From IMG/VR virus record IMGVR_UViG_3300045996_000470, positions 1 to 34,666 of that record: 34,666 nucleotides of DNA. One strand, 5' to 3'. The translations under genes were made by a program, and so were the position numbers. The DNA is from a virus (taxonomy: Duplodnaviria > Heunggongvirae > Uroviricota > Caudoviricetes). Shown one piece after another: positions 2,317 to 27,122 of this stretch; the stretch's first letter is position 1, and every line of letters starts with the position of its first letter. The notes under the pieces were generated by a model, which saw nothing but the letters and a program-made list of their open reading frames with translations, did not search any database and had not been told where the DNA came from.

Positions 2317-3219
2317 ATGCCGACACTGATTATAGGAGACCAGTACATAGGAGAGGGAGAAGTAGGAGGTGCTCTTAGTTCGTCGGTCACTACTACGCAA
2401 ACGCAGACCGGTAAAGCCCGTGTCCAGAGAACTGAACCTAAAGACCAGACCGGTAAAGCCCGTGTCCAGAGAACTGAATCTGGAATCCAAACAGGAATAG
2501 CTCGCCTTCAAAAGTCAGTAACCCAAGCCCAAACAGGATTAGCTAGATTACAGAGAGTGGAATCTCGAACCCAAACTGGTATTTCTAGAATACAGCAAGC
2601 CGTTGAAAGAACCCAATCCGGTGTTTCTAGGGTACAGCAAACTGCACCTCAGACTCAACTGGGTATTGCTCGTATAACAGTTTTTTCTGCTAGTACTCAG
2701 ACGGGTACAGCTAGGGTTCAAAATACCTTCACACAAACTCAACAAGGTGTGGCTAGGGTTCAAAATACCTTCACACAAACTCAACAAGGTACAGCTAGAA
2801 TTGTATCTTCTTATACCAGAGATACTCTCACCTCTTTGCCTACTACTAATACTCTTCTTGCTGTCAGTTATAGCCCACAAGATGTTACAGACGTATCTAC
2901 GAGTGACGATGTGAGAGTAGGGCAAACCGGAATTGTAGGAACGGATTTTGTTATTCACCAGTTCAAGAGAAGCGGACTTAACAATACTTCCACTATTTCT
3001 GTAAGTATTGAATTGCAATCAGATTTGGCGCCGTCCATTAGTCCTGTTTATTTACAGATTTATAACGTAGATTCCGGAATTTGGGAAACTATCGACTCCG
3101 ACAGTACAACCGCAGCTAGTACTGATTTTATTTTATCCGCCACAGTGTCCTCTAATAAAGAGGATTACTATGAGCCAGACTTTACTATTACTTGTAGGGT
3201 TTATCAGGAGGGAGTCTAA
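2317..3219 (+). CDS. Virion-associated repeat protein, 300 aa (about 11 QTGxARI repeats plus a beta-rich C-terminal domain)
   Basis: Translation shows tandem 13-aa repeats; stop overlaps the next start (TAATG). Confidence 0.7.
   Translation: MPTLIIGDQYIGEGEVGGALSSSVTTTQTQTGKARVQRTEPKDQTGKARVQRTESGIQTGIARLQKSVTQAQTGLARLQRVESRTQTGISRIQQAVERTQSGVSRVQQTAPQTQLGIARITVFSASTQTGTARVQNTFTQTQQGVARVQNTFTQTQQGTARIVSSYTRDTLTSLPTTNTLLAVSYSPQDVTDVSTSDDVRVGQTGIVGTDFVIHQFKRSGLNNTSTISVSIELQSDLAPSISPVYLQIYNVDSGIWETIDSDSTTAASTDFILSATVSSNKEDYYEPDFTITCRVYQEGV
2386..2808 (+). repeat. 39-bp (13-aa) tandem coding repeats, about 11 copies
   Basis: For example GCTAGGGTTCAAAATACCTTCACACAAACTCAACAAGGT occurs twice in tandem; boundaries approximate. 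Confidence 0.85.
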
Positions 3220-6200
3220 TGGGTAGTCAGTTATTTACAACCCTAGGCTTACAAACGTGGGACTGGCCTGCGGGTGTAACTCAAGTTACCGCCGAGTGTC
3301 TTGGCGCTGGCGGTGGTGCGGGTTCTGCCACAGGCAATCCGGCAACTGGCGGCGGCGGCAGGGGCGGGGGTTATGGAAAGGCTGTAATCACAAAAGGTGC
3401 TGAATCGTCCTTAAGTCTTTTTGTAGGAGCTGGTGGTGCGGGTGGAGTTGACGCAACATCTGCCGGTAACGGGGAGGAATCTAGTGTTTTCCAGTCTGGT
3501 AATATGCGTTGCCAAGGTGCAGGCGGTGGTTTTGGTAATTCAGGCACTACTAATAATTCTAACGGGGCGGGTGGTACTACGAGTCCCACCATAAATTTTG
3601 GTAGTACAACATTTGTTGGCGGTAATGGTGGGACTGGTACTTTTGATACAATATCAGGTGCTGGCGGTGGCTCGGCTGGTCCAACTTCTGCCGGCGGTAA
3701 TGCAACTAGCGGTACTGCTGGTACTGCTGGTACTGGTAATTTTTTAGATGGTGTTAATTATTCTAGTGCGGGTGCGGCTGGTATAGCGGCATCAAATCCC
3801 GGCATTAACGCACCTTCCTCTGGGACAGATTACGGTGGAGGCGGGGGCGGTGGTCACGCCTCTACAAACCCCAATCAGGAGGGTGGTGCTGGTCGTCAGG
3901 GTCTAATTCTTCTTACTTGGACTGACCCTGCACCATTTGAAGGTGACCAAGACGCCTTTCGTTTCTATGAAGATGGAACTGAATCAGGTTCTACAGCTAT
4001 TGCAGCACAAGGGACAGACATTGCTGTTGATACATCGGGTGGAAATGTCAATACTCTTTTACGCGTCAGAGTTCAAGAAACTGGAGATGGTGCGGGAGGT
4101 CTATCCACCGATGACTACGTTTTACGATTCTCTCACAATGGTGGAGCATACAATGCCATAGGTTCTGGTGCTGTAGTAGGTTTTAGTTCTACTAATTTAA
4201 CAGATAACGGCTCTACTACTAACAGGCTTACTGGTGGTACTGGTTCGTTTGTTGCGGGTACGGTGTCTGAGGACGGCACCGTGGATAATCACAGTATTAC
4301 GCCCTCTAATTTTACCGAATATCTTTTTGCTATTACAATTGTAGCCGCCTCTGTATCACCTTCAGATACATTAGATTTTCGTATTTACAGAAATGGTTCT
4401 ACTCTTGATGTTTATACAGATACCCCAAGAATTACAATTGAGGCTGGAGATACGACCACTCCTCAGACTATAACAGGTACAGCTAGAGTCCAAAGAACAG
4501 AGCCTAAAACTCAAATGGGTGTGGCTCGTGTTCAAAGGACAGAGCCTAAAGACCAGACTGGTACAGCTAGGATATCATTAGCTGTGGCGCAAACTCAGAC
4601 TGGTATAGCTAGAATTACAGCCACAACCCCTGCTACTCAAGCAGGTATTTCTAGAATTACTGCCTCAACGACTAGAACTCAGACCGGTATATCTAGAGTC
4701 CAGAAAACTGTTGGACTACAGCCCAGTATTACAGTTTCAGATACAAGTGTCAACGGTGTTTATACTTATCGTGGAGTTCACGATGGAGCACCTTATTATA
4801 ATTTAGAAGGAAGCGCCTCAGACCCCAACACTTCGGCAATAAGATTTAGTGATTTAAATGGTTATTGGGAACTTATAGTTATATCTGACCCCGAATTTAT
4901 TGAGGCAACAGGTACGCCCACTACAAGTCTTGGTTTACCTAGTTACCCTATTGACCCCGATATAACTTGGAATGATGCAACTTTAACTTGGACATCCTCT
5001 TTTCCTCCTAGTTTTCAGCAAGGTAAAGCCTCTATTAGAACTACTACCACCAAAACTCAAACTGGTAGGGCTAGAATTCGTGTAACTACAACTAGAACTC
5101 AACTGGGTAAGGCTGCGATTCAAAAGAGTGTATCTCAAACGCAAACTGGTGTTGCAAGTATAGTTGTTACTGCAACACAGACGCAAACAGGTGTATCTAG
5201 AATTCAACAAAGCGCAGTTCAAACCCAGTCTGGTAAGGCATTTGTCCTTAATTCCACTACACAGAATCAAACAGGTAAAGCTGCTATTCGTAAGACGGTG
5301 GAGCAGGCACAAGCTGGTGTCTCTAGAATACAGTTAGCTGTTCAGAGAACCCAAACGGGTATCTCTAGAATCCAGTTAGCCGTTGAAAGAACGCAGACGG
5401 GTATTTCTAGAATCCAGAGGACTGAATCTAGGACGCAAACTGGTGTCTCTAGAATTCAACAAACTGCGGTAAAGACTCAAACTGGTGTTGCGAGAATACA
5501 GAAAATCGAACCCAAGATTCAAGCAGGTATATCTAGAATTACAGCGGCTACCAACAGAACGCAGGAGGGAGTTTCTAGAATTACGACCACTACAGGCGTA
5601 ACTCAGACAGGAACTTCAAGAGTTACAGCTTCTGCCCAGAGAACGCAAGCAGGTAAGGCTGCAATTCAAAATACTACTTCTCAAACCCAGTCAGGTAAGG
5701 CCAATATAGTTGAGGTTCAAGACTTTACACTTTCGGTAGACCGAGTATTTATTGACTTTACTGAAAATGTAACTAGTACTCAAACGCAGACGGGTAAAGC
5801 ATCTATTCGAAAAACTGCAACTCAGACTCAAACGGGTGTTGCGAGAATTCAGAAGACCGTAGCTCAAACCCAGCAGGGTGCGGCTAGGATACAACTTGCT
5901 GTCCAACAGACCCAAACCGGTAAGGCTGCGATTCAGAAGACCGTAGCTCAAACCCAATTAGGTGTTGCGAGAATTCAGAAGACCGTAGCTCAAACCCAAT
6001 TAGGTGTTGCGAGAATTCAGCTTGCTGTCCAACAGACTCAAGCGGGTATTTCTAGAATTCAAAATATATCTACACAGACCCAGTTAGGTGTTGCGAGAAT
6101 TACGGCTGTTGCAATTCGTACCCAAACTGGTGTGGCTAGAGTTCAACTTGCAACTCAGCAAAACCAGACTGGTAAGGCTGCAATCCAGAAAACTCAGACG

Positions 6201-7127
6201 CAAACACAACAAGGCGTTGCGTATGTTTCTAGCTCCATACAGCAAAACCAGAATGGTAAGGCTGCAATCCAGAAGGCTCAGCCACAAACCCAAACCGGTA
6301 AGGCTAGTATTGTAGTTACAGTAACACAAACCCAAACCGGTGTTGCTAGAATTCAGAAAACAGCAATCCAAACCCAAACTGGTGTGGCTAGAATTCAGCT
6401 TGCATCCCAACAATTACAACCGGGTGTTGCGAGAATTATGGCATCGACAGCACGCGCTCAAGCGGGCGTGGCACGTATTCAATTGGCTGCCCAGAGAACG
6501 CAAACTGGTGTGGCTAGAATTCAACTTGCCGTTCAGCAAACCCAAAATGGTGTTGGAAGAATCACAGCGGCTACGACCAGAACCCAAACTGGCGTCGCTA
6601 GGATAACTGTATCCACACAAATAACAAATACAGGTACAGCTAGAATCCAGAGTACTGTAGCCCGAACACAAACCGGCGTTGCCAACATTCGTGCAACCAC
6701 GAGTAGACCTCAAACAGGTACAGCCAGTGTTGTAAGTTCTACACAAAGAACACAGACCGGTGTTGCTAGAATTCAAACTACGTACACACAAGCTCAGACG
6801 GGTAAAGCATCTATTCGAAAAACTACCTCCCAGAGCATAGGTGGCGTAGCTCGAATTATAACGTTTACCGTTGTTATAAGAGATATTACCTTCTCTAACT
6901 TGACAGGAGAGGGTAAACTAGTGTCTAATCTAGTTGGAGACGCTGCATTAGAATCCTCTTTAAGTGGAGACGCTGCATTAGAGTCCTCGCTAACTACGGA
7001 AGCAAAACTAATTTCTGCACTTCCTTCTGAGGCAGGACTGGAAAGTGATTTAACTAAGGACGGAAAACTAATTTCCGAATTAATAAAGGACGGAAAAGGG
7101 ACTTCTAATATAACGAATAGTCCTTAA
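3219..7127 (+). CDS. Large virion appendage / fibre-like protein, 1302 aa (Gly-rich N-terminal domain, roughly 50 QTGxARI repeats, C-terminal 10-aa repeats)
   Basis: GAGGG...GGNGG-type Gly-rich phage domain followed by a long 13-aa periodic stalk; structural-module context. Confidence 0.7.
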   Translation: MGSQLFTTLGLQTWDWPAGVTQVTAECLGAGGGAGSATGNPATGGGGRGGGYGKAVITKGAESSLSLFVGAGGAGGVDATSAGNGEESSVFQSGNMRCQGAGGGFGNSGTTNNSNGAGGTTSPTINFGSTTFVGGNGGTGTFDTISGAGGGSAGPTSAGGNATSGTAGTAGTGNFLDGVNYSSAGAAGIAASNPGINAPSSGTDYGGGGGGGHASTNPNQEGGAGRQGLILLTWTDPAPFEGDQDAFRFYEDGTESGSTAIAAQGTDIAVDTSGGNVNTLLRVRVQETGDGAGGLSTDDYVLRFSHNGGAYNAIGSGAVVGFSSTNLTDNGSTTNRLTGGTGSFVAGTVSEDGTVDNHSITPSNFTEYLFAITIVAASVSPSDTLDFRIYRNGSTLDVYTDTPRITIEAGDTTTPQTITGTARVQRTEPKTQMGVARVQRTEPKDQTGTARISLAVAQTQTGIARITATTPATQAGISRITASTTRTQTGISRVQKTVGLQPSITVSDTSVNGVYTYRGVHDGAPYYNLEGSASDPNTSAIRFSDLNGYWELIVISDPEFIEATGTPTTSLGLPSYPIDPDITWNDATLTWTSSFPPSFQQGKASIRTTTTKTQTGRARIRVTTTRTQLGKAAIQKSVSQTQTGVASIVVTATQTQTGVSRIQQSAVQTQSGKAFVLNSTTQNQTGKAAIRKTVEQAQAGVSRIQLAVQRTQTGISRIQLAVERTQTGISRIQRTESRTQTGVSRIQQTAVKTQTGVARIQKIEPKIQAGISRITAATNRTQEGVSRITTTTGVTQTGTSRVTASAQRTQAGKAAIQNTTSQTQSGKANIVEVQDFTLSVDRVFIDFTENVTSTQTQTGKASIRKTATQTQTGVARIQKTVAQTQQGAARIQLAVQQTQTGKAAIQKTVAQTQLGVARIQKTVAQTQLGVARIQLAVQQTQAGISRIQNISTQTQLGVARITAVAIRTQTGVARVQLATQQNQTGKAAIQKTQTQTQQGVAYVSSSIQQNQNGKAAIQKAQPQTQTGKASIVVTVTQTQTGVARIQKTAIQTQTGVARIQLASQQLQPGVARIMASTARAQAGVARIQLAAQRTQTGVARIQLAVQQTQNGVGRITAATTRTQTGVARITVSTQITNTGTARIQSTVARTQTGVANIRATTSRPQTGTASVVSSTQRTQTGVARIQTTYTQAQTGKASIRKTTSQSIGGVARIITFTVVIRDITFSNLTGEGKLVSNLVGDAALESSLSGDAALESSLTTEAKLISALPSEAGLESDLTKDGKLISELIKDGKGTSNITNSP
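4460..6870 (+). repeat. 13-aa (39-bp) tandem coding repeats, consensus TQTQTG[VKI]ARI[QT]x
   Basis: Visible in protein and DNA; interrupted by an insert of about 100 aa (~4715-5010) and one of about 20 aa (~5715-5775); boundaries approximate. Confidence 0.85.
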
Positions 7128-7842: not shown

Positions 7843-8294
7843 TGATAAAAGGATTCAGAGGAAAAAACAGATGGCTATCAAACTTTGTCGAGGCAGAAGT
7901 GTCTTTTCAAGGGGAAAAATATGCTTCGGTGGAACATGCTTACGTAGCTGCAAAGACTCAAGATAAAGAGCTTAGAAAGATAATCCAGTCTTTTGCTACA
8001 GCAGGAGAAGCTAAGCGTTTCGGAAAGTCTCTAGACCTTAGACCTAATTGGGACAAGATGAAGCTATGTGTGATGGAAAATCTGGTCAAACAGAAATTTT
8101 CTCTCCCTGAATTTGCTGAAAAGCTTTTAGCGACAGGTGACCAAGAAATTGTTGAGGAGAACACTTGGCATGATAACTTCTTTGGTTCTTGCCTTTGCGA
8201 GGACTGCGGTAATAAGGGAGAAAACCATTTGGGTAAAATCCTAATGAAGGTAAGGGAAGGCTTAAATCAGCTTTCCCTTGACTTTTCTAAATAA
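7842..8294 (+). CDS. NADAR (YbiA-like) family protein
   Basis: WLSNF...YASVEHAY.AAK...AK.FG...LRPNWD..KL.VM...KF...LLATG...IVE.N.WHDNFFG...GENHLGKILMKVRE motifs. Confidence 0.9.
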   Translation: MIKGFRGKNRWLSNFVEAEVSFQGEKYASVEHAYVAAKTQDKELRKIIQSFATAGEAKRFGKSLDLRPNWDKMKLCVMENLVKQKFSLPEFAEKLLATGDQEIVEENTWHDNFFGSCLCEDCGNKGENHLGKILMKVREGLNQLSLDFSK

Positions 8295-8306
8295 TCGAGT
8301 TATAAT
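8278..8306 (+). promoter_or_regulatory. Sigma70-type promoter for the first tRNA/accessory cluster
   Basis: TTGACT-N17-TATAAT, 12 nt upstream of tRNA-Gly. Confidence 0.75.
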
Positions 8307-8318
8307 ATAGCTTTACGT

Positions 8319-8393
8319 GTGGGTGTAGCATAGAAGTAAATGCAGAACATTGCCAATGTTCGGAAGGGAGAGCGTTACTCCTCACTCACTCCA
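8319..8393 (+). tRNA. tRNA-Gly(GCC) with non-canonical T-loop AGCGTTA
   Basis: Acceptor GTGGGTG/CACTCAC, U73, CCA; anticodon arm GAACA-TTGCCAA-TGTTC. Confidence 0.85.
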
Positions 8394-8401
8394 TTTTATT
8401 T

Positions 8402-9099: not shown

Positions 9100-9188
9100 G
9101 CAGGTGCGGACATTGGAAGAGTCAGCTAGTCTTCGAAACTAGTACCGTACATAGATACGTGGGGGTTCGAATCCCTCCACCTGCACCA
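9100..9188 (+). tRNA. tRNA-Arg(TCG) with long variable arm
   Basis: GCAGGTG/CACCTGC, A73, CCA; CTAGT-CTTCGAA-ACTAG; V-arm CGTA-catag a-TACG; canonical TTCGAAT T-loop. Confidence 0.8.
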
Positions 9189-9380: not shown

Positions 9381-9469
9381 GCTCGTGTAGTTTAGATGGA
9401 GAAAATACACCGCTACGAACGGTGAGAGAGCGAAAGCCGTCGCAGGTTCGAGTCCTGCCACGAGTGCCA
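9381..9469 (+). tRNA. tRNA-Arg(ACG) with GCGAAAGC variable-arm hairpin
   Basis: GCTCGTG/CACGAGT, G73, CCA; CACCG-CTACGAA-CGGTG. Confidence 0.85.
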
Positions 9470-21576: not shown

Positions 21577-21699
21577 TTGACAAATAGCGGGGGTTAGTGT
21601 ATACTCTTAATATGATTTTAACAGTGAATACAGTTTAACCCTTGCAAGTAGTCTGACGGTGACGACACCCTAGGACTATGTTCTGGGGCGTTTTTATTT
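21577..21699 (+). promoter_or_regulatory. Candidate ribosome-mediated attenuator 1
   Basis: TTGACA-N17-TATACT; leaderless ORF MILTVNTV*; alternative hairpins TAGTCT/AGGACTA versus CCCTAGGAC/GTTCTGGGG plus T-tract. Confidence 0.65.
21612..21638 (+). CDS. Putative leader peptide MILTVNTV
   Basis: ATG at the predicted +1; codons ATT TTA ACA GTG AAT ACA GTT TAA. Confidence 0.55.
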   Translation: MILTVNTV

Positions 21700-21933
21700 A
21701 TGCTGGAATTACTAATAGACGAAGAAGATTATTTGATAAACATAAAACAGCTTAAAGACTTTGCAGAAAGTCAGGGAATTCCCTTTGATGGTTCTTCTCG
21801 AAAAGTTGTTGAAGTAGCATTAACAATGATGATTGCCACAGAGCTAGATGCCGATGCAGTTGTAATGCTAGGAAAATTGATTTATAATGTAGGTTACAGG
21901 GACAATAATTTTAAGACTCTGAACATACACTAA
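21700..21933 (+). CDS. Hypothetical protein, 77 aa
   Basis: ORF track; starts right after the terminator T-tract. Confidence 0.65.
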   Translation: MLELLIDEEDYLINIKQLKDFAESQGIPFDGSSRKVVEVALTMMIATELDADAVVMLGKLIYNVGYRDNNFKTLNIH

Positions 21934-21938
21934 GAAAT

Positions 21939-22025
21939 GCCTGTGTTCCTCGTGTTGGCTAGAGGCACTGTCTTGTAAGCAGTCGAGCGAAAGCGTCGGG
22001 GGTTCGATTCCCCTCTCAGGCTCCA
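21939..22025 (+). tRNA. tRNA-Thr(TGT) with GCGAAAGC variable-arm hairpin
   Basis: GCCTGTG/CTCAGGC; ACTGT-CTTGTAA-GCAGT; GGTTCGATTCC; CCA. Confidence 0.8.
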
Positions 22026-22032
22026 GATTTAT

Positions 22033-22110
22033 TCAAGCGGAGCACGTAAGTATGTTGCGGCAGTCTGTTAAACTGCGTCGAAGGTGGAGCGTTACCACTC
22101 GCTTGAGCCA
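22033..22110 (+). tRNA. tRNA-Asn(GTT) with AGCGTTA T-loop
   Basis: TCAAGCG/CGCTTGA, G73, CCA; GCAGT-CTGTTAA-ACTGC. Confidence 0.8.
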
Positions 22111-22128
22111 TTACAGTATGGTTATAAC

Positions 22129-22158
22129 TTGCAATGTTATAGCCATATTTGTTATACT
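22129..22158 (+). promoter_or_regulatory. Promoter of HNH cassette (leaderless), -35 box inside an inverted repeat
   Basis: TTGCAA-N18-TATACT; TATGGTTATAAC/GTTATAGCCATA arms at 22117-22128 and 22136-22147. Confidence 0.6.
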
Positions 22159-22164
22159 ATCTAA

Positions 22165-22521
22165 ATGCTAAAAGAAAAGTATGTAGATAGAACATGTAGA
22201 ACTCACGGTCTTACGGAATACGTTTTAGATTATCGTAATTCTTACCGATGCAAAAAATGTAGAGTAGATGCAGTAACGAAGAGACGAAGAGTTCTTAAAC
22301 TTAAGGCAGTTGAGTATAAAGGTGGAAAATGTCAGAGATGTGGTTATAGTAAGTGCGTCCAAGCCTTACAGTTTCATCATACAGACGATAACAAAGAGTT
22401 TACTATTGCCAGAAAGGGAGTTACTCGTTCTTGGGAAAAAGTAAAAAAAGAAATTGATAAGTGTATGCTAGTGTGTGCTAATTGTCACGCAGAAATACAC
22501 GCAGAAAAATATAATGTTTAA
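22165..22521 (+). CDS. Free-standing HNH homing-type endonuclease, 118 aa
   Basis: CQRCGY.KC..ALQFHH...CMLVCANCHAEIH; stop abuts tRNA-Val. Confidence 0.88.
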   Translation: MLKEKYVDRTCRTHGLTEYVLDYRNSYRCKKCRVDAVTKRRRVLKLKAVEYKGGKCQRCGYSKCVQALQFHHTDDNKEFTIARKGVTRSWEKVKKEIDKCMLVCANCHAEIHAEKYNV

Positions 22522-22598
22522 GCGCTTCGGACTGTGGCTGGCTAACAATCTCGTTTACACCGAGAAAATGCGGGGTTCGATTCCTCGGAGGCGCACCA
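22522..22598 (+). tRNA. tRNA-Val(TAC)
   Basis: GCGCTTC/GAGGCGC, A73, CCA; TCTCG-TTTACAC-CGAGA. Confidence 0.85.
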
Positions 22599-22725: not shown

Positions 22726-22801
22726 TCCAGTGTGGGCTAATTGGTAAGTCGGGAGATTGTTAATCTCTACGATTTCGGTTCAAATCCGAACGCTGGAGCC
22801 A
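22726..22801 (+). tRNA. tRNA-Asn(GTT), canonical
   Basis: TCCAGTG/CGCTGGA, G73, CCA; GGAGA-TTGTTAA-TCTCT; GGTTCAAATCC. Confidence 0.9.
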
Positions 22802-23347: not shown

Positions 23348-23359
23348 TTGGAGGAAGTT

Positions 23360-23488
23360 ATGAAACTGTTTGCTACTTCTAAAAAGAAATCTAAGACCAA
23401 GAAAAAGAAGGGAACTTCCAAAGCTAAAACTAGCAAGTCTTCGAAGAGAAAGAAGAGAACCAAAAAGAAAGTGAAGTGGGGGTACTAA
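23360..23488 (+). CDS. Very basic Lys-rich microprotein, 42 aa
   Basis: GGAGG SD; MKLFATSKKKSKTKKKKGTSKAKTSKSSKRKKRTKKKVKWGY*. Confidence 0.65.
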   Translation: MKLFATSKKKSKTKKKKGTSKAKTSKSSKRKKRTKKKVKWGY

Positions 23489-23490
23489 CC

Positions 23491-23649
23491 ATGCCTTTAA
23501 CTAAGAAAGGAAAGAAAATTAAACGTGCTATGCAGAAACAGTATGGCAAGAAGAAAGGATTAAAAGTTTTCTACGCTTCTAGGAATGCCGGTAAAATCAA
23601 AGGTGTTGAAAAGAAAAGTAGGAAGAAGAAAGGTAGGAAAAAGAAATGA
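23491..23649 (+). CDS. Very basic Lys-rich microprotein, 52 aa
   Basis: MPLTKKGKKIKRAMQKQYGKKKGLKVFYASRNAGKIKGVEKKSRKKKGRKKK*; ATGA overlap with the next gene. Confidence 0.7.
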   Translation: MPLTKKGKKIKRAMQKQYGKKKGLKVFYASRNAGKIKGVEKKSRKKKGRKKK

Positions 23650-23834
23650 GAATAAGTAATCAACTTAGAGACGTAGATAGACACTACCTAAACAATTTAA
23701 TCGTCAGTGGACTCGGAGAAATTCCGGACAAGGATGGTAAGGTATCCTCTAGAGCTACGCATAAATTTGTGCTCGAAAAGGGGTTTATTGTTGCGGCAAT
23801 AAAGATAATGAAAAAAGAGGGACATAAAAAATGA
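23646..23834 (+). CDS. Hypothetical protein, 62 aa
   Basis: ORF track; ATGA overlaps at both ends. Confidence 0.65.
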   Translation: MRISNQLRDVDRHYLNNLIVSGLGEIPDKDGKVSSRATHKFVLEKGFIVAAIKIMKKEGHKK

Positions 23835-24178
23835 CTTTAGCACTCGTGTTCATATTATTGGCTGCTGCCGTAGGCACAGCATTAGGAGTAGAAACTTTAG
23901 TAATGGCTGTACTTGGAGCATTCGGAACGATAATAGTTCAAGGAATCAAGAAATACAGCGGGGCAAACGGAAACAGGGCACTAAACATTACGGTTGGTGT
24001 GTCCGTGGGACTAGCGCTTATGGGAGCATTTGCAACAAAGGCTTTCACAGGAGCAGATGGAGTAACTAATTGGGCTAGCATACTTAACGGAGCATTCGTG
24101 GTATTTGGCGTGGCGACTCTAGCATACAAGTACTTGCTTTCAAAGGACACAGAAATAGTTTCTGAGCCGCCTGTTTAA
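23831..24178 (+). CDS. Small multi-pass membrane protein (holin-like), 115 aa
   Basis: 3-4 hydrophobic helices; function inferred only. Confidence 0.6.
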   Translation: MTLALVFILLAAAVGTALGVETLVMAVLGAFGTIIVQGIKKYSGANGNRALNITVGVSVGLALMGAFATKAFTGADGVTNWASILNGAFVVFGVATLAYKYLLSKDTEIVSEPPV

Positions 24179-24196
24179 CTTCAGGTTTGAGGGTAC

Positions 24197-24341
24197 TTGA
24201 CAAAACCTAAATTTAGGTGTAATATAATTAAATGATGAATTTTTCAACTATAGCCAAGATTAAATCTGAATAACTACTTTGTGGTTTGGCTATAGGTGTA
24301 TTCCCTTCCAGACCGTGTGTTTGGAGGGGATTTTTATTTTT
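24197..24341 (+). promoter_or_regulatory. Candidate ribosome-mediated attenuator 2
   Basis: TTGACA-N17-TAATAT; leaderless ORF MMNFSTIAKIKSE*; 1:2, 2:3 and 3:4 hairpins plus T-tract. Confidence 0.7.
24232..24273 (+). CDS. Putative leader peptide MMNFSTIAKIKSE
   Basis: ATG at the predicted +1; core codons ATA GCC AAG ATT AAA. Confidence 0.55.
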   Translation: MMNFSTIAKIKSE

Positions 24342-24346
24342 AGGGG

Positions 24347-24374
24347 TTGACTTTTCCTGAAAATGTGTTAAGAT
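24347..24374 (+). promoter_or_regulatory. Possible internal promoter
   Basis: TTGACT-N16-TAAGAT. Confidence 0.45.
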
Positions 24375-24381
24375 AAAAAAG

Positions 24382-24521
24382 ATTGATAGTGGAGGCTAAG
24401 ATTGATAATCACTCCAACTCCGATGAAGAGGCTAATCTGCCTTCTAGAACCCGAAAGGGGACTAGGGTTATACGATAAGAGAAGAAGCTAGCACTTCGCC
24501 GTGCCGTGCTGTGGTCGGAGC
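24382..24521 (+). ncRNA. Candidate structured RNA upstream of tRNA-Ala
   Basis: TGGAG/CTCCA, CTCCGA/TCGGAG, GAAGAGGC/GCCTTC, CTAG-CCC-GAAA-GGG-CTAG and GCAC/GTGC helices. Confidence 0.4.
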
Positions 24522-24533
24522 AAAAAAGATTAA

Positions 24534-24609
24534 GGGGTCATCCAATATTGGCATTGGGTTTTGATTTGCAATCAAAAATCTGAGAGTTCGATTCTCTCTG
24601 GCTCCACCA
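24534..24609 (+). tRNA. tRNA-Ala(TGC)
   Basis: GGGGTCA/TGGCTCC with G3:U70, A73, CCA; TTTGA-TTTGCAA-TCAAA. Confidence 0.85.
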
Positions 24610-24701
24610 ATTCATTTCTATAGAAAGAAAACTGTTCGCGTTCGACTGATGGCGTGAAGACATAAAGCGGTAAGAGTCCGAATCAAGGTCATAGAATTTA
24701 A

Positions 24702-24786
24702 GCCCTTATGTGGAGAGTGGGATTCCAGCGGTCTTTTAAACCGATGCCATAAGGCGGGCGAGGTTCGATTCCTCGTGGGGGCACCA
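24702..24786 (+). tRNA. tRNA-Lys(TTT) with GCC-ATAA-GGC variable arm
   Basis: GCCCTTA/TGGGGGC, A73, CCA; CGGT-CTTTTAA-ACCG. Confidence 0.8.
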
Positions 24787-24789
24787 TAT

Positions 24790-24865
24790 GGGAGTATGGG
24801 GAAAGTAGTATCCTAGGAGCCTTTTAAGCTTCGGTTCTCCGTGCAAGTCGAGAGTGCTCCTACCA
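24790..24865 (+). tRNA. tRNA-Lys(TTT), second copy, atypical T-loop TGCAAGT
   Basis: GGGAGTA/TGCTCCT, A73, CCA; GGAGC-CTTTTAA-GCTTC. Confidence 0.75.
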
Positions 24866-24871
24866 AATTAT

Positions 24872-25159
24872 ATGGACAGATTAAAGAGACAAGCAAATTG
24901 GTGTAGGTTTGTTAAGCAAAGATTCAAAGAATCTGTCCAGACTTCGGACGGAAGGTGGAGAATGTTCGGCCCAGTTCACGTTAAATCCGAGGATTACGGC
25001 AAAGATTTCGGAGGACTCGTTCCCTATACTAACAGATACGTTAAGGCTGTTAAGAGAGAACTAAAGATTGAATACCGAGCAGCCAAGCGTGGCGAGAAAC
25101 AAGAGGTAAGGAAGGAAATAGAAAGAATCCTTCTAGAAGAAAATGAAACTGCCGTGTAA
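24872..25159 (+). CDS. Basic hypothetical protein, 95 aa
   Basis: In frame with the ORF-track call at 24854; ATG 6 nt after the tRNA CCA. Confidence 0.65.
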   Translation: MDRLKRQANWCRFVKQRFKESVQTSDGRWRMFGPVHVKSEDYGKDFGGLVPYTNRYVKAVKRELKIEYRAAKRGEKQEVRKEIERILLEENETAV

Positions 25160-25424
25160 ATATACTCCCTTAACCTTTGTCGAAAGGCGTAACGTTAGGG
25201 GAGAGTATATCAAACAACAAAAAGGATTGTGTTGGTATTGTCAAGGCAAGTTGGATGAAGAACCTCCGGAGAAAATCCTTAAGTATAAGGTCACTCCGAG
25301 GCTGTATCCAAAAGGATTTTTTGATAACCCTATTCACTTGCACCACGACCACGTAACGGATATGACGTTGGGAGCAGTTCACGCATATTGTAATGCAGTG
25401 CTTTGGAAATATTATGGGCAGTAA
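25143..25424 (+). CDS. Endonuclease VII-like (His-Me finger) protein, 93 aa
   Basis: QKGLCWYC...LHHDHVT....GAVHAYCN. Confidence 0.6.
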   Translation: MKLPCKYTPLTFVERRNVRGEYIKQQKGLCWYCQGKLDEEPPEKILKYKVTPRLYPKGFFDNPIHLHHDHVTDMTLGAVHAYCNAVLWKYYGQ

Positions 25425-25429
25425 TTTAT

Positions 25430-25513
25430 ACTAGCGTGACAGATGGGGATGTAGACAGCCGATTACTGTCGTTCGAAAGAGCTATGAGAGTTCGAATCTC
25501 TCCGCTAGTACCA
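25430..25513 (+). tRNA. Atypical tRNA, anticodon GAT (Ile), with C33/U37 and long variable arm
   Basis: ACTAGCG/CGCTAGT, A73, CCA; GACAG-CCGATTA-CTGTC; V-arm GTTC-GAAA-GAGC. Confidence 0.6.
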
Positions 25514-25517
25514 TTAT

Positions 25518-25934
25518 ATGAGCAAAAGATTCAACTCTGAAATCCTTAATCAGTTAATCAACGAGCGTTGGAACGATGAAGGATTAAACATTAAGGTAGA
25601 GTATAAAGATAGCTCACGATGGGCTGGAACAGCAACTATAAAGAAACTGATTAAAGTTAAGAAGGGCTTTAGTTACGAAGAATTAGCTGATGAAATAATC
25701 CAGTATATAAAAGATTGTTTGAATCAGAACGCAGGTACGAGTCCACTAGTTACCTTTCGTAAATGTCCTGATGGAAATTATTTTAACGCAAAGTTTGTTT
25801 GTGGTAGTGATGGAAAGTTTTGGAAAGAAGTTTACGCAAGAGTAACTTCAAATATGATTTATGCCCCAATGACAGAGATAACATTTAACGATGGGGATGA
25901 TTGGGTATTAGATTACTATAGAATGCCGTATTAG
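25518..25934 (+). CDS. Hypothetical protein, 138 aa (TAG stop)
   Basis: ORF track; wedged between two tRNA genes. Confidence 0.7.
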   Translation: MSKRFNSEILNQLINERWNDEGLNIKVEYKDSSRWAGTATIKKLIKVKKGFSYEELADEIIQYIKDCLNQNAGTSPLVTFRKCPDGNYFNAKFVCGSDGKFWKEVYARVTSNMIYAPMTEITFNDGDDWVLDYYRMPY

Positions 25935-25936
25935 AC

Positions 25937-26023
25937 GGGGGTATGTGGAGAGTGGGATTCCTGCTGGCTCTTAACCAGACAAGCGAAAGCTTAGACAAGG
26001 TTCGATTCCTTGTGCCCCTACCA
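25937..26023 (+). tRNA. tRNA-Lys(CTT) with AAGC-GAAA-GCTT variable arm
   Basis: GGGGGTA/TGCCCCT, A73, CCA; CTGG-CTCTTAA-CCAG; D-arm nearly identical to the tRNA at 24702. Confidence 0.8.
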
Positions 26024-26032
26024 ATTTTATAT

Positions 26033-26127
26033 GGAAGACAGCACAAGTGTGCGGGAGGGTCTTATAACCCCTTAATTGGCAGTAGATAACTGTTCACGGC
26101 TCCGAGCGTTACGGAGGTTTTCTACCA
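26033..26127 (+). tRNA. tRNA-Ile(TAT), 95 nt, very long variable arm, AGCGTTA T-loop
   Basis: GGAAGAC/GTTTTCT, A73, CCA; AGGG(T)-CTTATAA-(C)CCCT; V-arm GCAGT-AGATA-ACTGT. Confidence 0.7.
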
Positions 26128-26152
26128 AATTTATGCTAGATTTATGACCAGA

Positions 26153-26190
26153 CAAAAAGGCGTTACTTACTTCGGTGAGGACGCTTTTTG
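26153..26190 (+). terminator. Terminator-like hairpin closing the Ala/Lys/Ile tRNA cluster
   Basis: CAAAAAG(G)CGT...ACGCTTTTTG with an inner TTCG-capped stem. Confidence 0.6.
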
Positions 26191-26217
26191 TTCGTTTAAG
26201 GGGAGGGGGCCGGCCCC

Positions 26218-26246
26218 TTGACTCCTAGAGAAATTTCCTTTATAAT
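26218..26246 (+). promoter_or_regulatory. Sigma70-type promoter (leaderless)
   Basis: TTGACT-N17-TATAAT; ATG 6 nt downstream. Confidence 0.75.
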
Positions 26247-26252
26247 AGAAGG

Positions 26253-27122
26253 ATGGCTAATGGAGTAAAGAAACAGTCCGTGTGTTGGCAGTATGAGATG
26301 AGGACTGCTAATTTAAAAGAGGATTTGAAAGCAGCGGGGTTTACAAAGAAATATGTGGATGGGCTTACTTGCAGCGATTTTACTTTTAGAATTGTTACAG
26401 ATATACAAGAGAGAAGGAAACTCATTGATTTCATAAAGAGGCACGAGTGGCTTGGAACGATATCCCAATACCCCACTCACTACTTCGGGTGCTATCATAA
26501 AGGAGTGTTGGCAGGAGCTTTAATCCTGAATTTGCCCAACGCCTTTACTAAGATGTTGGGAGAAGAAACCCCGGAACTTGAGAGACTTATAAGTCGTGGT
26601 GCTTGCATTAGTTGGTCGCCTAAAGGTTTAGCCTCCAAGTTCATTATGTGGACTATCCGCTATATGGTGCAGAACACTAGGTATAGATTGTTCTCCGCAT
26701 ACAGTGATGTAGAAGCAGGAGAATTGGGAACTATCTATCAAGCCTGTGGTTTCTATTATATGGGGCAGAACGCAGGCACGACAACTCGCTATATCAATCC
26801 CTACACCGGTAAGGAAGTTAGCGATAGATTCTTTAGGCAGAGAGCGACTTATAAGAAGTATGCTAAAGAATTAAAAATAGAGTGGCAGAAAGATTGGACT
26901 GTAAAGACGGGGATGAACTGGAAAGCAATCCCCACAAAGGTTGCTGACAGGTTGAGAGCCTACAGTAGAGAGCAACAAAAAGCTCAAACACCAATCATTA
27001 AACCCAAAAAACACAAGTACGTTTATGTGCTTGGAAGGGACAAAAGAGAGACAAGGGAATTAAGGAAAAGATTCCTAGCAAATAACAAAACATTCAATTA
27101 TCCAAAAAAACGAGGAATATAA
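26253..27122 (+). CDS. Mom-like GNAT-fold DNA-modification protein, 289 aa
   Basis: FIKRHEWLG...YFG.Y..G.L.G...L...ELERL...LASKFI...LFSAYSD.EAGELGTIYQACGFYY.G pattern. Confidence 0.6.
   Translation: MANGVKKQSVCWQYEMRTANLKEDLKAAGFTKKYVDGLTCSDFTFRIVTDIQERRKLIDFIKRHEWLGTISQYPTHYFGCYHKGVLAGALILNLPNAFTKMLGEETPELERLISRGACISWSPKGLASKFIMWTIRYMVQNTRYRLFSAYSDVEAGELGTIYQACGFYYMGQNAGTTTRYINPYTGKEVSDRFFRQRATYKKYAKELKIEWQKDWTVKTGMNWKAIPTKVADRLRAYSREQQKAQTPIIKPKKHKYVYVLGRDKRETRELRKRFLANNKTFNYPKKRGI

Follow-up and report, generated by a model that had tools for sequence, protein, structure and literature searches.

We analysed a stretch of 34,666 nucleotides (nt), hereafter the window, which forms the initial 34.7 kb of the 121-kb IMG/VR record of an uncultured soil phage (IMGVR_UViG_3300045996_000470; Caudoviricetes), and found at 24197–24341 a compact unit of promoter, leaderless mini-open reading frame (mini-ORF) and terminator at the head of a cluster of transfer RNA (tRNA) genes. 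The sequence and the modelled RNA folds make it probable that this unit is a ribosome-mediated (leader-peptide) transcription attenuator heading the phage tRNA cluster, and one of two in the genome. Through it the phage probably boosts these tRNAs when ribosomes run short of them. Near-identical DNA is present in soil metagenome runs, and two such runs carry the region with zero differences in the leader. The elements that had been predicted in this interval from the letters alone were all found at their coordinates, which confirms the observation. The attenuator reading that the original prediction built on them fared less evenly: the leaderless start, the conserved module and a second leader speak for it, whereas a bypass promoter, atypical tRNAs and a marginal antiterminator speak against it.

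A leaderless mini-ORF and a terminator precede tRNA genes of matching specificity

The unit, which we call leader 1, is composed of the following parts (L004 and L012 are related loci described below).

24197–24225, + strand: promoter P1, with TTGACA at 24197–24202, a 17-nt spacer and TAATAT at 24220–24225; place and hexamers are kept in L004 and L012
24232–24273, + strand: leaderless mini-ORF MMNFSTIAKIKSE*, 13 codons, its ATG 6 nt past the −10 box
24248–24295, + strand: hairpin 1:2, pairing 24248–57 with 24286–95; segment 1 lies over codons 6–9
24282–24315, + strand: candidate antiterminator 2:3, pairing 24282–89 with 24308–15
24302–24341, + strand: intrinsic terminator 3:4 with T-tract, a 12-bp stem at 24302–24330 followed by TTTTTATTTTT

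The candidate control codons, ATA GCC AAG ATT AAA, occupy 24250–24264. As had been claimed, the promoter has the form TTGACA-N17-TAATAT and the mini-ORF holds these five codons in succession; hairpin 1:2 is a perfect 10 bp with segment 1 inside the ORF, the terminator is present with its T-tract, and the 2:3 pairing exists, comprising in the window 8 bp of which 2 are G-U. The fold of 24226–24345 reaches −35 kcal/mol (z = −3.66), and 0 of 200 shuffles were equally stable. At E values up to 5, the segment 24150–26250 yielded no match to the Rfam leader families (Trp, His, Thr, Leu and others) or to the T-box, and the best non-tRNA Rfam match was to an unrelated Bacteroides small RNA, at 23 bits against a gathering score of 105.

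Downstream lie the genes of the tRNA cluster and the terminator that closes it.

24534–24609, + strand: tRNA-Ala(UGC), called by ARAGORN and Rfam
24702–24786, + strand: tRNA-Lys(UUU) with a long variable arm, called by ARAGORN and Rfam
24790–24865, + strand: second tRNA-Lys(UUU)-like gene with a weak T-arm, called by ARAGORN only at 95% of the default threshold; repeat family D12
25430–25513, + strand: tRNA-Ile(GAU) with a long variable arm, called by ARAGORN and Rfam
25937–26023, + strand: tRNA-Lys(CUU) with a long variable arm, called by ARAGORN and Rfam
~26033–26127, + strand: tRNA-Ile(UAU)-like gene with T-loop AGCGUUA, whose unconstrained fold is a cloverleaf with anticodon UAU and a long variable arm
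26151–26192, + strand: terminator closing the tRNA cluster, −17.6 kcal/mol, z = −3.65

Six tRNAs had been predicted here. Four of them, Ala(UGC), Lys(UUU), Ile(GAU) and Lys(CUU), were called as such, whereas the second Lys(UUU) and the Ile(UAU) genes are atypical. The latter was called by neither ARAGORN nor Rfam; its anticodon loop and variable arm align with those of an ARAGORN-called tRNA-Ile(UAU) in the related locus L013. The closing terminator, previously placed at 26153–26190, is real by its fold.

A second unit of the same design heads a different tRNA set

A further unit lies at 21577–21699.

21577–21699, + strand: second unit of the same design (leader 2), with promoter at 21577–21605 (TTGACA, 17 nt, TATACT), mini-ORF and terminator
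21612–21638, + strand: leader-2 mini-ORF MILTVNTV*, ATG ATT TTA ACA GTG AAT ACA GTT TAA, its ATG 6 nt past the −10 box
21649–54 and 21672–78, + strand: leader-2 pairing, TAGTCT able to pair with AGGACTA
21668–21688, + strand: leader-2 terminator, with a T-tract to 21699 and the same TTTTTATTT tract as leader 1
21939–22025, + strand: tRNA-Thr(UGU), downstream of leader 2
22522–22598, + strand: tRNA-Val(UAC), downstream of leader 2
22726–22801, + strand: tRNA-Asn(GUU), downstream of leader 2

Leader 2 is followed in order by an ORF of 77 amino acids (aa), for which a homologue search found only itself, then tRNA-Thr(UGU), a homing-endonuclease gene, tRNA-Val(UAC) and tRNA-Asn(GUU). Its mini-ORF has five consecutive codons that are all Thr, Val or Asn, which is exactly the downstream tRNA set. 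Every Thr codon is ACA in all leader-2 variants, and ACA is read by the downstream Thr(UGU); the phage's commonest Thr codon is ACT, the would-be reader of which, Thr(GGU), is encoded elsewhere. There is no promoter between the leader-2 terminator and the next gene, and the ATG of the 77-aa ORF abuts the T-tract. The 3′ arm of this terminator (GAGGG or GGGG) lies about 11–13 nt upstream of that ATG (window 21680–21702; L004 3765–3788; L006 4275–4298) and, from its sequence, could double as a ribosome-binding site when the terminator is open.

HNH homing-endonuclease genes sit among the tRNA genes (window 22129–22521; L012 2699–3304). Each carries a promoter of its own whose −10 box is followed 6 nt later by the ATG, which gives the clusters extra internal transcription starts.

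Leaderless starts are the rule in this phage and mini-ORFs the exception

We scanned the whole record for promoters of the form TTGAC-N, a 16–18-nt spacer and TA-NNN-T with an ATG within the following 4–10 nt. This gave 36 promoter-plus-ATG sites, 33 of which open ORFs of 59–1324 aa. Mini-ORFs followed by a terminator were opened by two sites only, the 8 codons at 21612 and the 13 codons at 24232, and both precede tRNA clusters; the 36th site is a chance 3-codon ORF at a promoter directly on tRNA-Ile (14185). Among the leaderless genes is a Mom-like gene directly after the cluster behind leader 1 (promoter 26218, ATG 26253). By their sequence, leaderless starts are the rule in this phage. In about 30 cases the ATG of a real gene stands 5–8 nt past the −10 box. 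The ATG spacing of leader 1 is that of the phage's own genes, so a leaderless start of its mini-ORF requires no special pleading.

The order of parts also sets the two leaders apart. Elsewhere in the window a terminator usually comes before a promoter (8251/8278, 14347/14389, 26151/26218), and the order promoter, short ORF, terminator occurs in the two leaders alone. Further leaders were sought before the tRNA genes for Arg (9100), Ile (14185) and Met (20145), and none was found; these tRNA genes either have a promoter directly in front or come after protein genes. At 8251–8306, the 8278 promoter shares its −35 box with an overlapping 12-bp hairpin. A G+C-rich stem that ends in CCCC immediately precedes TTGAC at several further promoters of the genome, a pattern suggestive of hairpin-promoter cassettes.

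Mini-ORF and terminator are kept or lost together in related phages

Relatives were found through homologues of the 115-aa gene just upstream of leader 1 (56–65% identity), which gave nine usable contexts; L005 is the same phage as L004, and the copy at the leader-2 site in L008 is identical to that in L007. Leader 1 is kept in L012 and L004 with its promoter, an ATG 6–7 nt past the −10 box, an ORF of 13 or 12 codons, the 1:2 hairpin and the terminator. The encoded peptides, MMKFKAAIAIKSD in L012 and MIKKAAIAIKSD in L004, are richer in Ile, Ala and Lys than that of the window, and all five residues at which L004 departs from the N-terminal half of the window peptide are Ile, Lys or Ala. Relative to the window, all indels in the ORF are in frame (two 3-nt indels that compensate each other, and a single 3-nt deletion), Ser is retained by a change from TCT to AGT, Glu is replaced by Asp and the position of the stop is unchanged. 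The terminator has a 12–13-bp G+C-rich stem and a U-tract in all three variants, and in L004 and L012 the two-hairpin shape is built from changed sequence. Leader 1 and the upstream coding sequence are conserved to a similar degree (70–74%), and leader 1 reaches 88% between L004 and L012.

What follows the terminator differs among these loci. In L004, no promoter separates the terminator from tRNA-Ala(UGC), which starts immediately at the base following the T-tract, and the cluster comprises Ala, Lys(UUU), Lys(CUU) and Ile(GAU); judged from its sequence, the L004 switch is the only visible route into tRNA-Ala. L012 likewise has no promoter directly behind the terminator; some 45 nt further on stands the promoter of an inserted HNH gene, ahead of tRNA-Lys. 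In five other loci (L006, L009, L010, L013 and L014), neither the leader-1 mini-ORF nor the terminator is present; there, a promoter that overlaps the upstream gene's stop leads directly to tRNA-Ala or to a conserved structured RNA (described below). Leader-1 mini-ORF and terminator are thus found together in three loci and are both absent in five, which indicates that they come and go together. Homologues that keep the terminator and lose the ORF, named in the original prediction as evidence against it, were not seen at leader 1 in these eight loci. All relatives carry nearly the same tRNA sets, apart from L007 and L008, which have no tRNA genes whatever. At the leader-2 site, L007 (4515–4600) retains a promoter and a terminator, together with an ATG placed at the start distance and an unrelated 18-codon frame.

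Leader 2 reads MISTVNTI* in L012, MISIVNTH* in L004 and MISTANKI* in L006. There are zero indels inside its ORF and several just after it; the terminator stems differ compensatorily, and the terminator loop and the upstream TAGTCT are invariant. Leader-2 DNA identity is 79–86%, compared with 61–73% for neighbouring genes and 85–100% for tRNA-Thr.

Beyond these loci, a megablast search of GenBank phages with 23800–26300 gave no match, and protein-anchored scans of IMG/VR and JGI metagenome contigs gave no confirmed further relative. Exact and degenerate DNA patterns from both leaders returned only chance matches (L011, L015, L021 and L022) within coding or AT-rich DNA. The nearest named phage, Vibrio phage 501E54-1, has no synteny in this region, and the P0015 and P0014 contexts (L016–L020) are different phages from which the unit is absent.

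Runs of leader codons that match the downstream tRNAs are unlikely by chance

The downstream tRNAs had determined the amino-acid sets in advance, and the hypothesis had been stated before L004 and L012 were examined. Two null sets were used, windows of the phage's own proteins, in which Ala, Lys and Ile make up 20.9% of residues and Thr, Val and Asn 18.2%, and random peptides of intergenic composition.

Window leader 1: ≥5 consecutive Ala/Lys/Ile among 12 residues; p = 0.0024 (phage proteins), 0.0009 (random peptides)
L012 leader 1: 8/12 Ala/Lys/Ile; p = 0.002 (phage proteins)
L004 leader 1: 9/11 Ala/Lys/Ile; p = 1e-4 (phage proteins), 1e-5 (random peptides)
Window leader 2: ≥5 consecutive Thr/Val/Asn among 7 residues; p = 3e-4 (both null sets)

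Since the leader copies are homologues of one another, simple multiplication of these p-values is not valid. By plain count, the 5/12 Ala/Lys/Ile residues of window leader 1 are unremarkable (p ~0.09). Among 28 real leaderless N-termini that were tested, no run exceeded 3 (Ala/Lys/Ile) or 4 (Thr/Val/Asn). Leader 1 and leader 2 draw on different sets of amino acids, and each set fits the cluster behind that leader. The L012 leader retains a Val codon, and ARAGORN finds no tRNA-Val on the short contig of that locus.

A ribosome on the nascent leader is predicted to switch its fold

At equilibrium, the leader-1 terminator is always predicted whatever is masked, which weighs against attenuation; in the trp leader the terminator likewise wins at equilibrium, and it is the order of synthesis that decides. 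Since equilibrium masks never remove the leader-1 terminator, we instead folded the nascent transcript as far as the terminator loop. The model without a ribosome gives the 1:2 hairpin, at −16 kcal/mol for the window and −12 for the relatives. When nt 1 to 34–43 were covered, which places the A site on codons 8–11, the minimum-energy fold was the 2:3 antiterminator in all three variants; in it, segment 2 pairs with the terminator loop and the upper part of the 5′ arm, at −10.7 kcal/mol for the window and −7.8 for both L004 and L012. Moving the ribosome to the stop codon weakened the 2:3 energy to −6.9 (window), −2.7 (L004) and −3.2 (L012). The pairing is made by GGUUUGG/CCAGACC in the window versus CGUAGC/GCUACG in the relatives, with the same topology. 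Folding with and without a ribosome footprint, as the original prediction had proposed, thus agreed with it for nascent RNA, which is predicted to switch in three variants, but not for the equilibrium fold, which never does.

For leader 2, a hairpin between TAGTCT and GGACTA forms first in 4/4 variants (−10 to −13 kcal/mol, p 0 to 0.036). In 3/4 variants the full-length optimum contains a closing stem in which ACCCUC, the bases immediately following the stop codon, pairs with the 3′ arm of the terminator; in L004 the two folds are nearly isoenergetic. According to these models, a ribosome near the end of the leader-2 ORF would block the closing stem, a logic similar but not identical to that of leader 1.

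From sequence, folding and comparison we propose the following course of events at leader 1. Transcripts from P1 would start at or next to the AUG at 24232 and be translated without a leader. With no ribosome on the leader, or with the ribosome finished and gone, 1:2 and then 3:4 would form, and transcription would stop near 24341. When acylated Ile, Ala or Lys tRNAs are scarce, a ribosome would linger on ATA-GCC-AAG-ATT-AAA and cover segment 1; segment 2 would then pair with the upper part of the terminator's 5′ arm while the 3′ arm is still to be synthesised, letting the polymerase read into the Ala/Lys/Ile tRNA genes. The new tRNAs would speed decoding of the leader and restore termination, closing a feedback loop. 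In the window genome, the switch would add to constitutive transcription from a second promoter, P2.

A bypass promoter and other evidence against the attenuator

This second promoter lies directly behind the terminator, where the original prediction had flagged a possible bypass of the switch.

24347–24374, + strand: promoter P2, TTGACT, 16 nt, TG-extended TAAGAT

P2 proved to be a full member of the phage's main promoter family, which it matches more strongly than P1 does, and shares 80% identity across 40 nt with the genome's promoter at 97888. It drives the conserved structured RNA and then tRNA-Ala. With P2 behind the terminator, the switch cannot be the sole gate in this genome. P2 is absent at its place in L004 and L012, and is therefore probably a secondary insertion in the window's lineage. 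The leader-1 terminator also stops read-through from upstream genes in this genome.

Several findings besides the equilibrium fold count against an attenuator. On sequence grounds, most tRNA transcripts here may start at P2 and not pass the switch, and in the window, contrary to what an attenuator would lead one to expect, a promoter intervenes between the terminator and the tRNA genes. Two of the six tRNAs are atypical, including the reader of ATA, and the reading of GCC by tRNA-Ala(UGC) requires four-way wobble. The Ala codons also give the stem its G+C, so structure could explain part of the composition, and the fit of leader 2 to the tRNA set is poorer in the relatives than in the window (4/7, 3/7 and 2/7). 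Compared with dinucleotide shuffles, the 2:3 energies are only marginal (p 0.05–0.12). RNAalifold on 3–4 sequences gave no usable covariation signal in the leaders; there are only three copies of leader 1 and four of leader 2, all homologous, which leaves covariation without statistical power.

Alternative explanations

We weighed three other accounts of the unit. The first is a general gate on translation status, by which tRNA output would follow overall ribosome loading or elongation rate, with codon identity secondary. The leaderless start, the geometry of ORF and terminator and the conservation fit this account equally well; the leader-2 fold seems to be set mostly by whether the ACCCUC after the stop codon is covered, and the leader-2 relatives match their own tRNA set only loosely. 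It leaves unexplained, however, that the two leaders use two different amino-acid sets, each matching its own cluster, and that 8–9 of 11–12 residues are Ala, Lys or Ile in L004 and L012. We regard it as unlikely.

A second possibility is a plain terminator or insulator lying beside a mobile promoter cassette that carries its own ATG. The frame would then be accidental, and the codon match a product of chance or a by-product of the stem; the terminator would merely end the upstream operon or damp P1. Promoter cassettes with an attached ATG are indeed common in the genome, P2 looks recently inserted, and homing-endonuclease genes with their own promoters shuffle the region. The tRNA-less L007 and L008 keep a promoter and terminator with an unrelated 18-codon frame at the leader-2 site, and the antiterminators are statistically marginal. 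Against this stand the conservation of the frame, the stop and the 3-nt steps of the indels, two independent codon-to-tRNA matches in one genome (joint chance below ~1e-5), five relatives that manage without any terminator after the same upstream gene, and a leader 2 nearly as conserved as a tRNA, and we consider such an origin improbable.

A stand-alone transcript of ~105 nt with a role of its own, as a regulatory small RNA or a message for a 13-residue peptide and unrelated to tRNA control, would suit a promoter and strong terminator that delimit a discrete small transcript, and liberated attenuator RNAs and leader peptides are reported to act in trans in Sinorhizobium (PMC6614838, PMC7298713), but it is very unlikely: it has no Rfam family match and no evident target, its peptide varies in the N-terminal half, its position before matching tRNA clusters, twice, would be left unexplained, and the tRNA-Ala of L004 has no other visible promoter.

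A leader-peptide attenuator thus remains our favoured interpretation of both units. By analogy with host defences, one may tentatively go further and ask whether the leaders could serve as codon-barcoded sensors of host tRNA attack, in which an anticodon nuclease would cause stalling on the matching codons and so induce replacement tRNAs; we think this possible but doubtful. The PARIS nuclease AriB has been reported to target tRNA-Lys(UUU), Thr(UGU) and Asn(GUU), and T5 versions overcome the defence (PMC12409363). All three of these reported target species are encoded behind the two leaders, an overlap that is suggestive context and not evidence. Several of the gated phage tRNAs have unusual long variable arms, which fits the same context.

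Other features of the window

The RNA driven by P2 is a feature in its own right.

24418–24520 (core; whole 24383–24533), + strand: conserved structured RNA with no assigned family, between P2 and tRNA-Ala, ~105 nt

It also occurs in L009 (~816–922), L010 (~1136–1243) and L014 (~652–753), with compensatory changes in 6 of 20 pairs, and is formed of a closing stem, UCCGAU/AUCGGA, plus a terminal hairpin; 24418–24520 has no Rfam family match.

Three tRNA-like genes share the T-loop AGCGUUA on a 5-bp stem and each end in CCA, with anticodons GCC (Gly-like, ~8320–8395), GUU (Asn-like, ~22033–22115) and UAU (Ile-like, ~26033–26127); ARAGORN and Rfam miss all three. Six tRNAs of 82–89 nt have stem-loop variable arms (9100–9188, 9381–9469, 21939–22025, 24702–24786, 25430–25513 and 25937–26023). 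They are Arg, Thr, Lys and Ile tRNAs, which normally carry short variable loops. Between the tRNA clusters, just upstream of the Lys tRNA genes, two overlapping small ORFs of 46 and 57 aa at 23348–23649 are extremely lysine-rich. At ~2400–6900, a long series of diverged 42-nt (14-codon) repeats lies within a very large ORF that probably encodes a fibre-like structural protein.

Relation to known attenuators and significance

Among enterobacterial attenuators, of which trp is the prototype, the thr leader carries Thr and Ile codons and the ilvGMEDA leader Leu, Val and Ile codons. The phage unit resembles these leaders in its short promoter-proximal ORF with control codons for several amino acids, in the placement of segment 1 within the ORF and of the stop codon a few nt before segment 2, and in its alternatives 1:2, 2:3 and 3:4 ending in an intrinsic terminator with a U-tract. 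It differs in being phage-encoded, in governing tRNA genes and not biosynthetic enzymes, and in its ORF, which is leaderless, very short (13 and 8 codons) and has one codon per tRNA species with no long runs; as the absence of an Rfam leader family match indicates, there is no sequence similarity between them. The Escherichia coli pheST attenuator (pheM) is closer in what it regulates, a decoding component whose output restores the acylated tRNA supply that the leader measures. Unlike the phage unit, pheST is cellular, comprises synthetase genes, senses one amino acid and has a Shine-Dalgarno-led ORF. T-box riboswitches likewise sense the state of a specific tRNA through a terminator/antiterminator switch, but they do so by direct binding of uncharged tRNA and involve neither an ORF nor a ribosome.

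In mycobacteria, polycysteine leaderless short ORFs are reported to act as cysteine-responsive attenuators (10.1101/834739). As far as that account goes, they share with the phage unit a leaderless short ORF at the 5′ end of the transcript, the codon content of which sets downstream expression; they concern cysteine-metabolism genes of a bacterium. The phage unit has an explicit terminator, and its putative targets are tRNA genes. Phage tRNA genes have been discussed as codon-usage supplements and lately as replacements for host tRNAs destroyed by nucleases (PMC10264068, PMC11464382, PMC11555353, PMC12409363). Control of their expression is hardly addressed in the literature. Our full-text literature searches found no description of leader-peptide attenuation of tRNA genes; leader-peptide control is described for amino-acid genes.

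If the attenuator reading is true, a textbook mechanism would extend to a new target class, and the leaders would be compact natural sensors of specific tRNA shortage. The genome offers an unusually small leaderless version, of 8 and 13 codons, and the relatives supply natural controls, with the unit, without it, and with or without the bypass promoter. The leaders would also predict which tRNAs matter to the phage during infection: the virus would gauge decoding speed codon by codon and correct the tRNA pool on demand.

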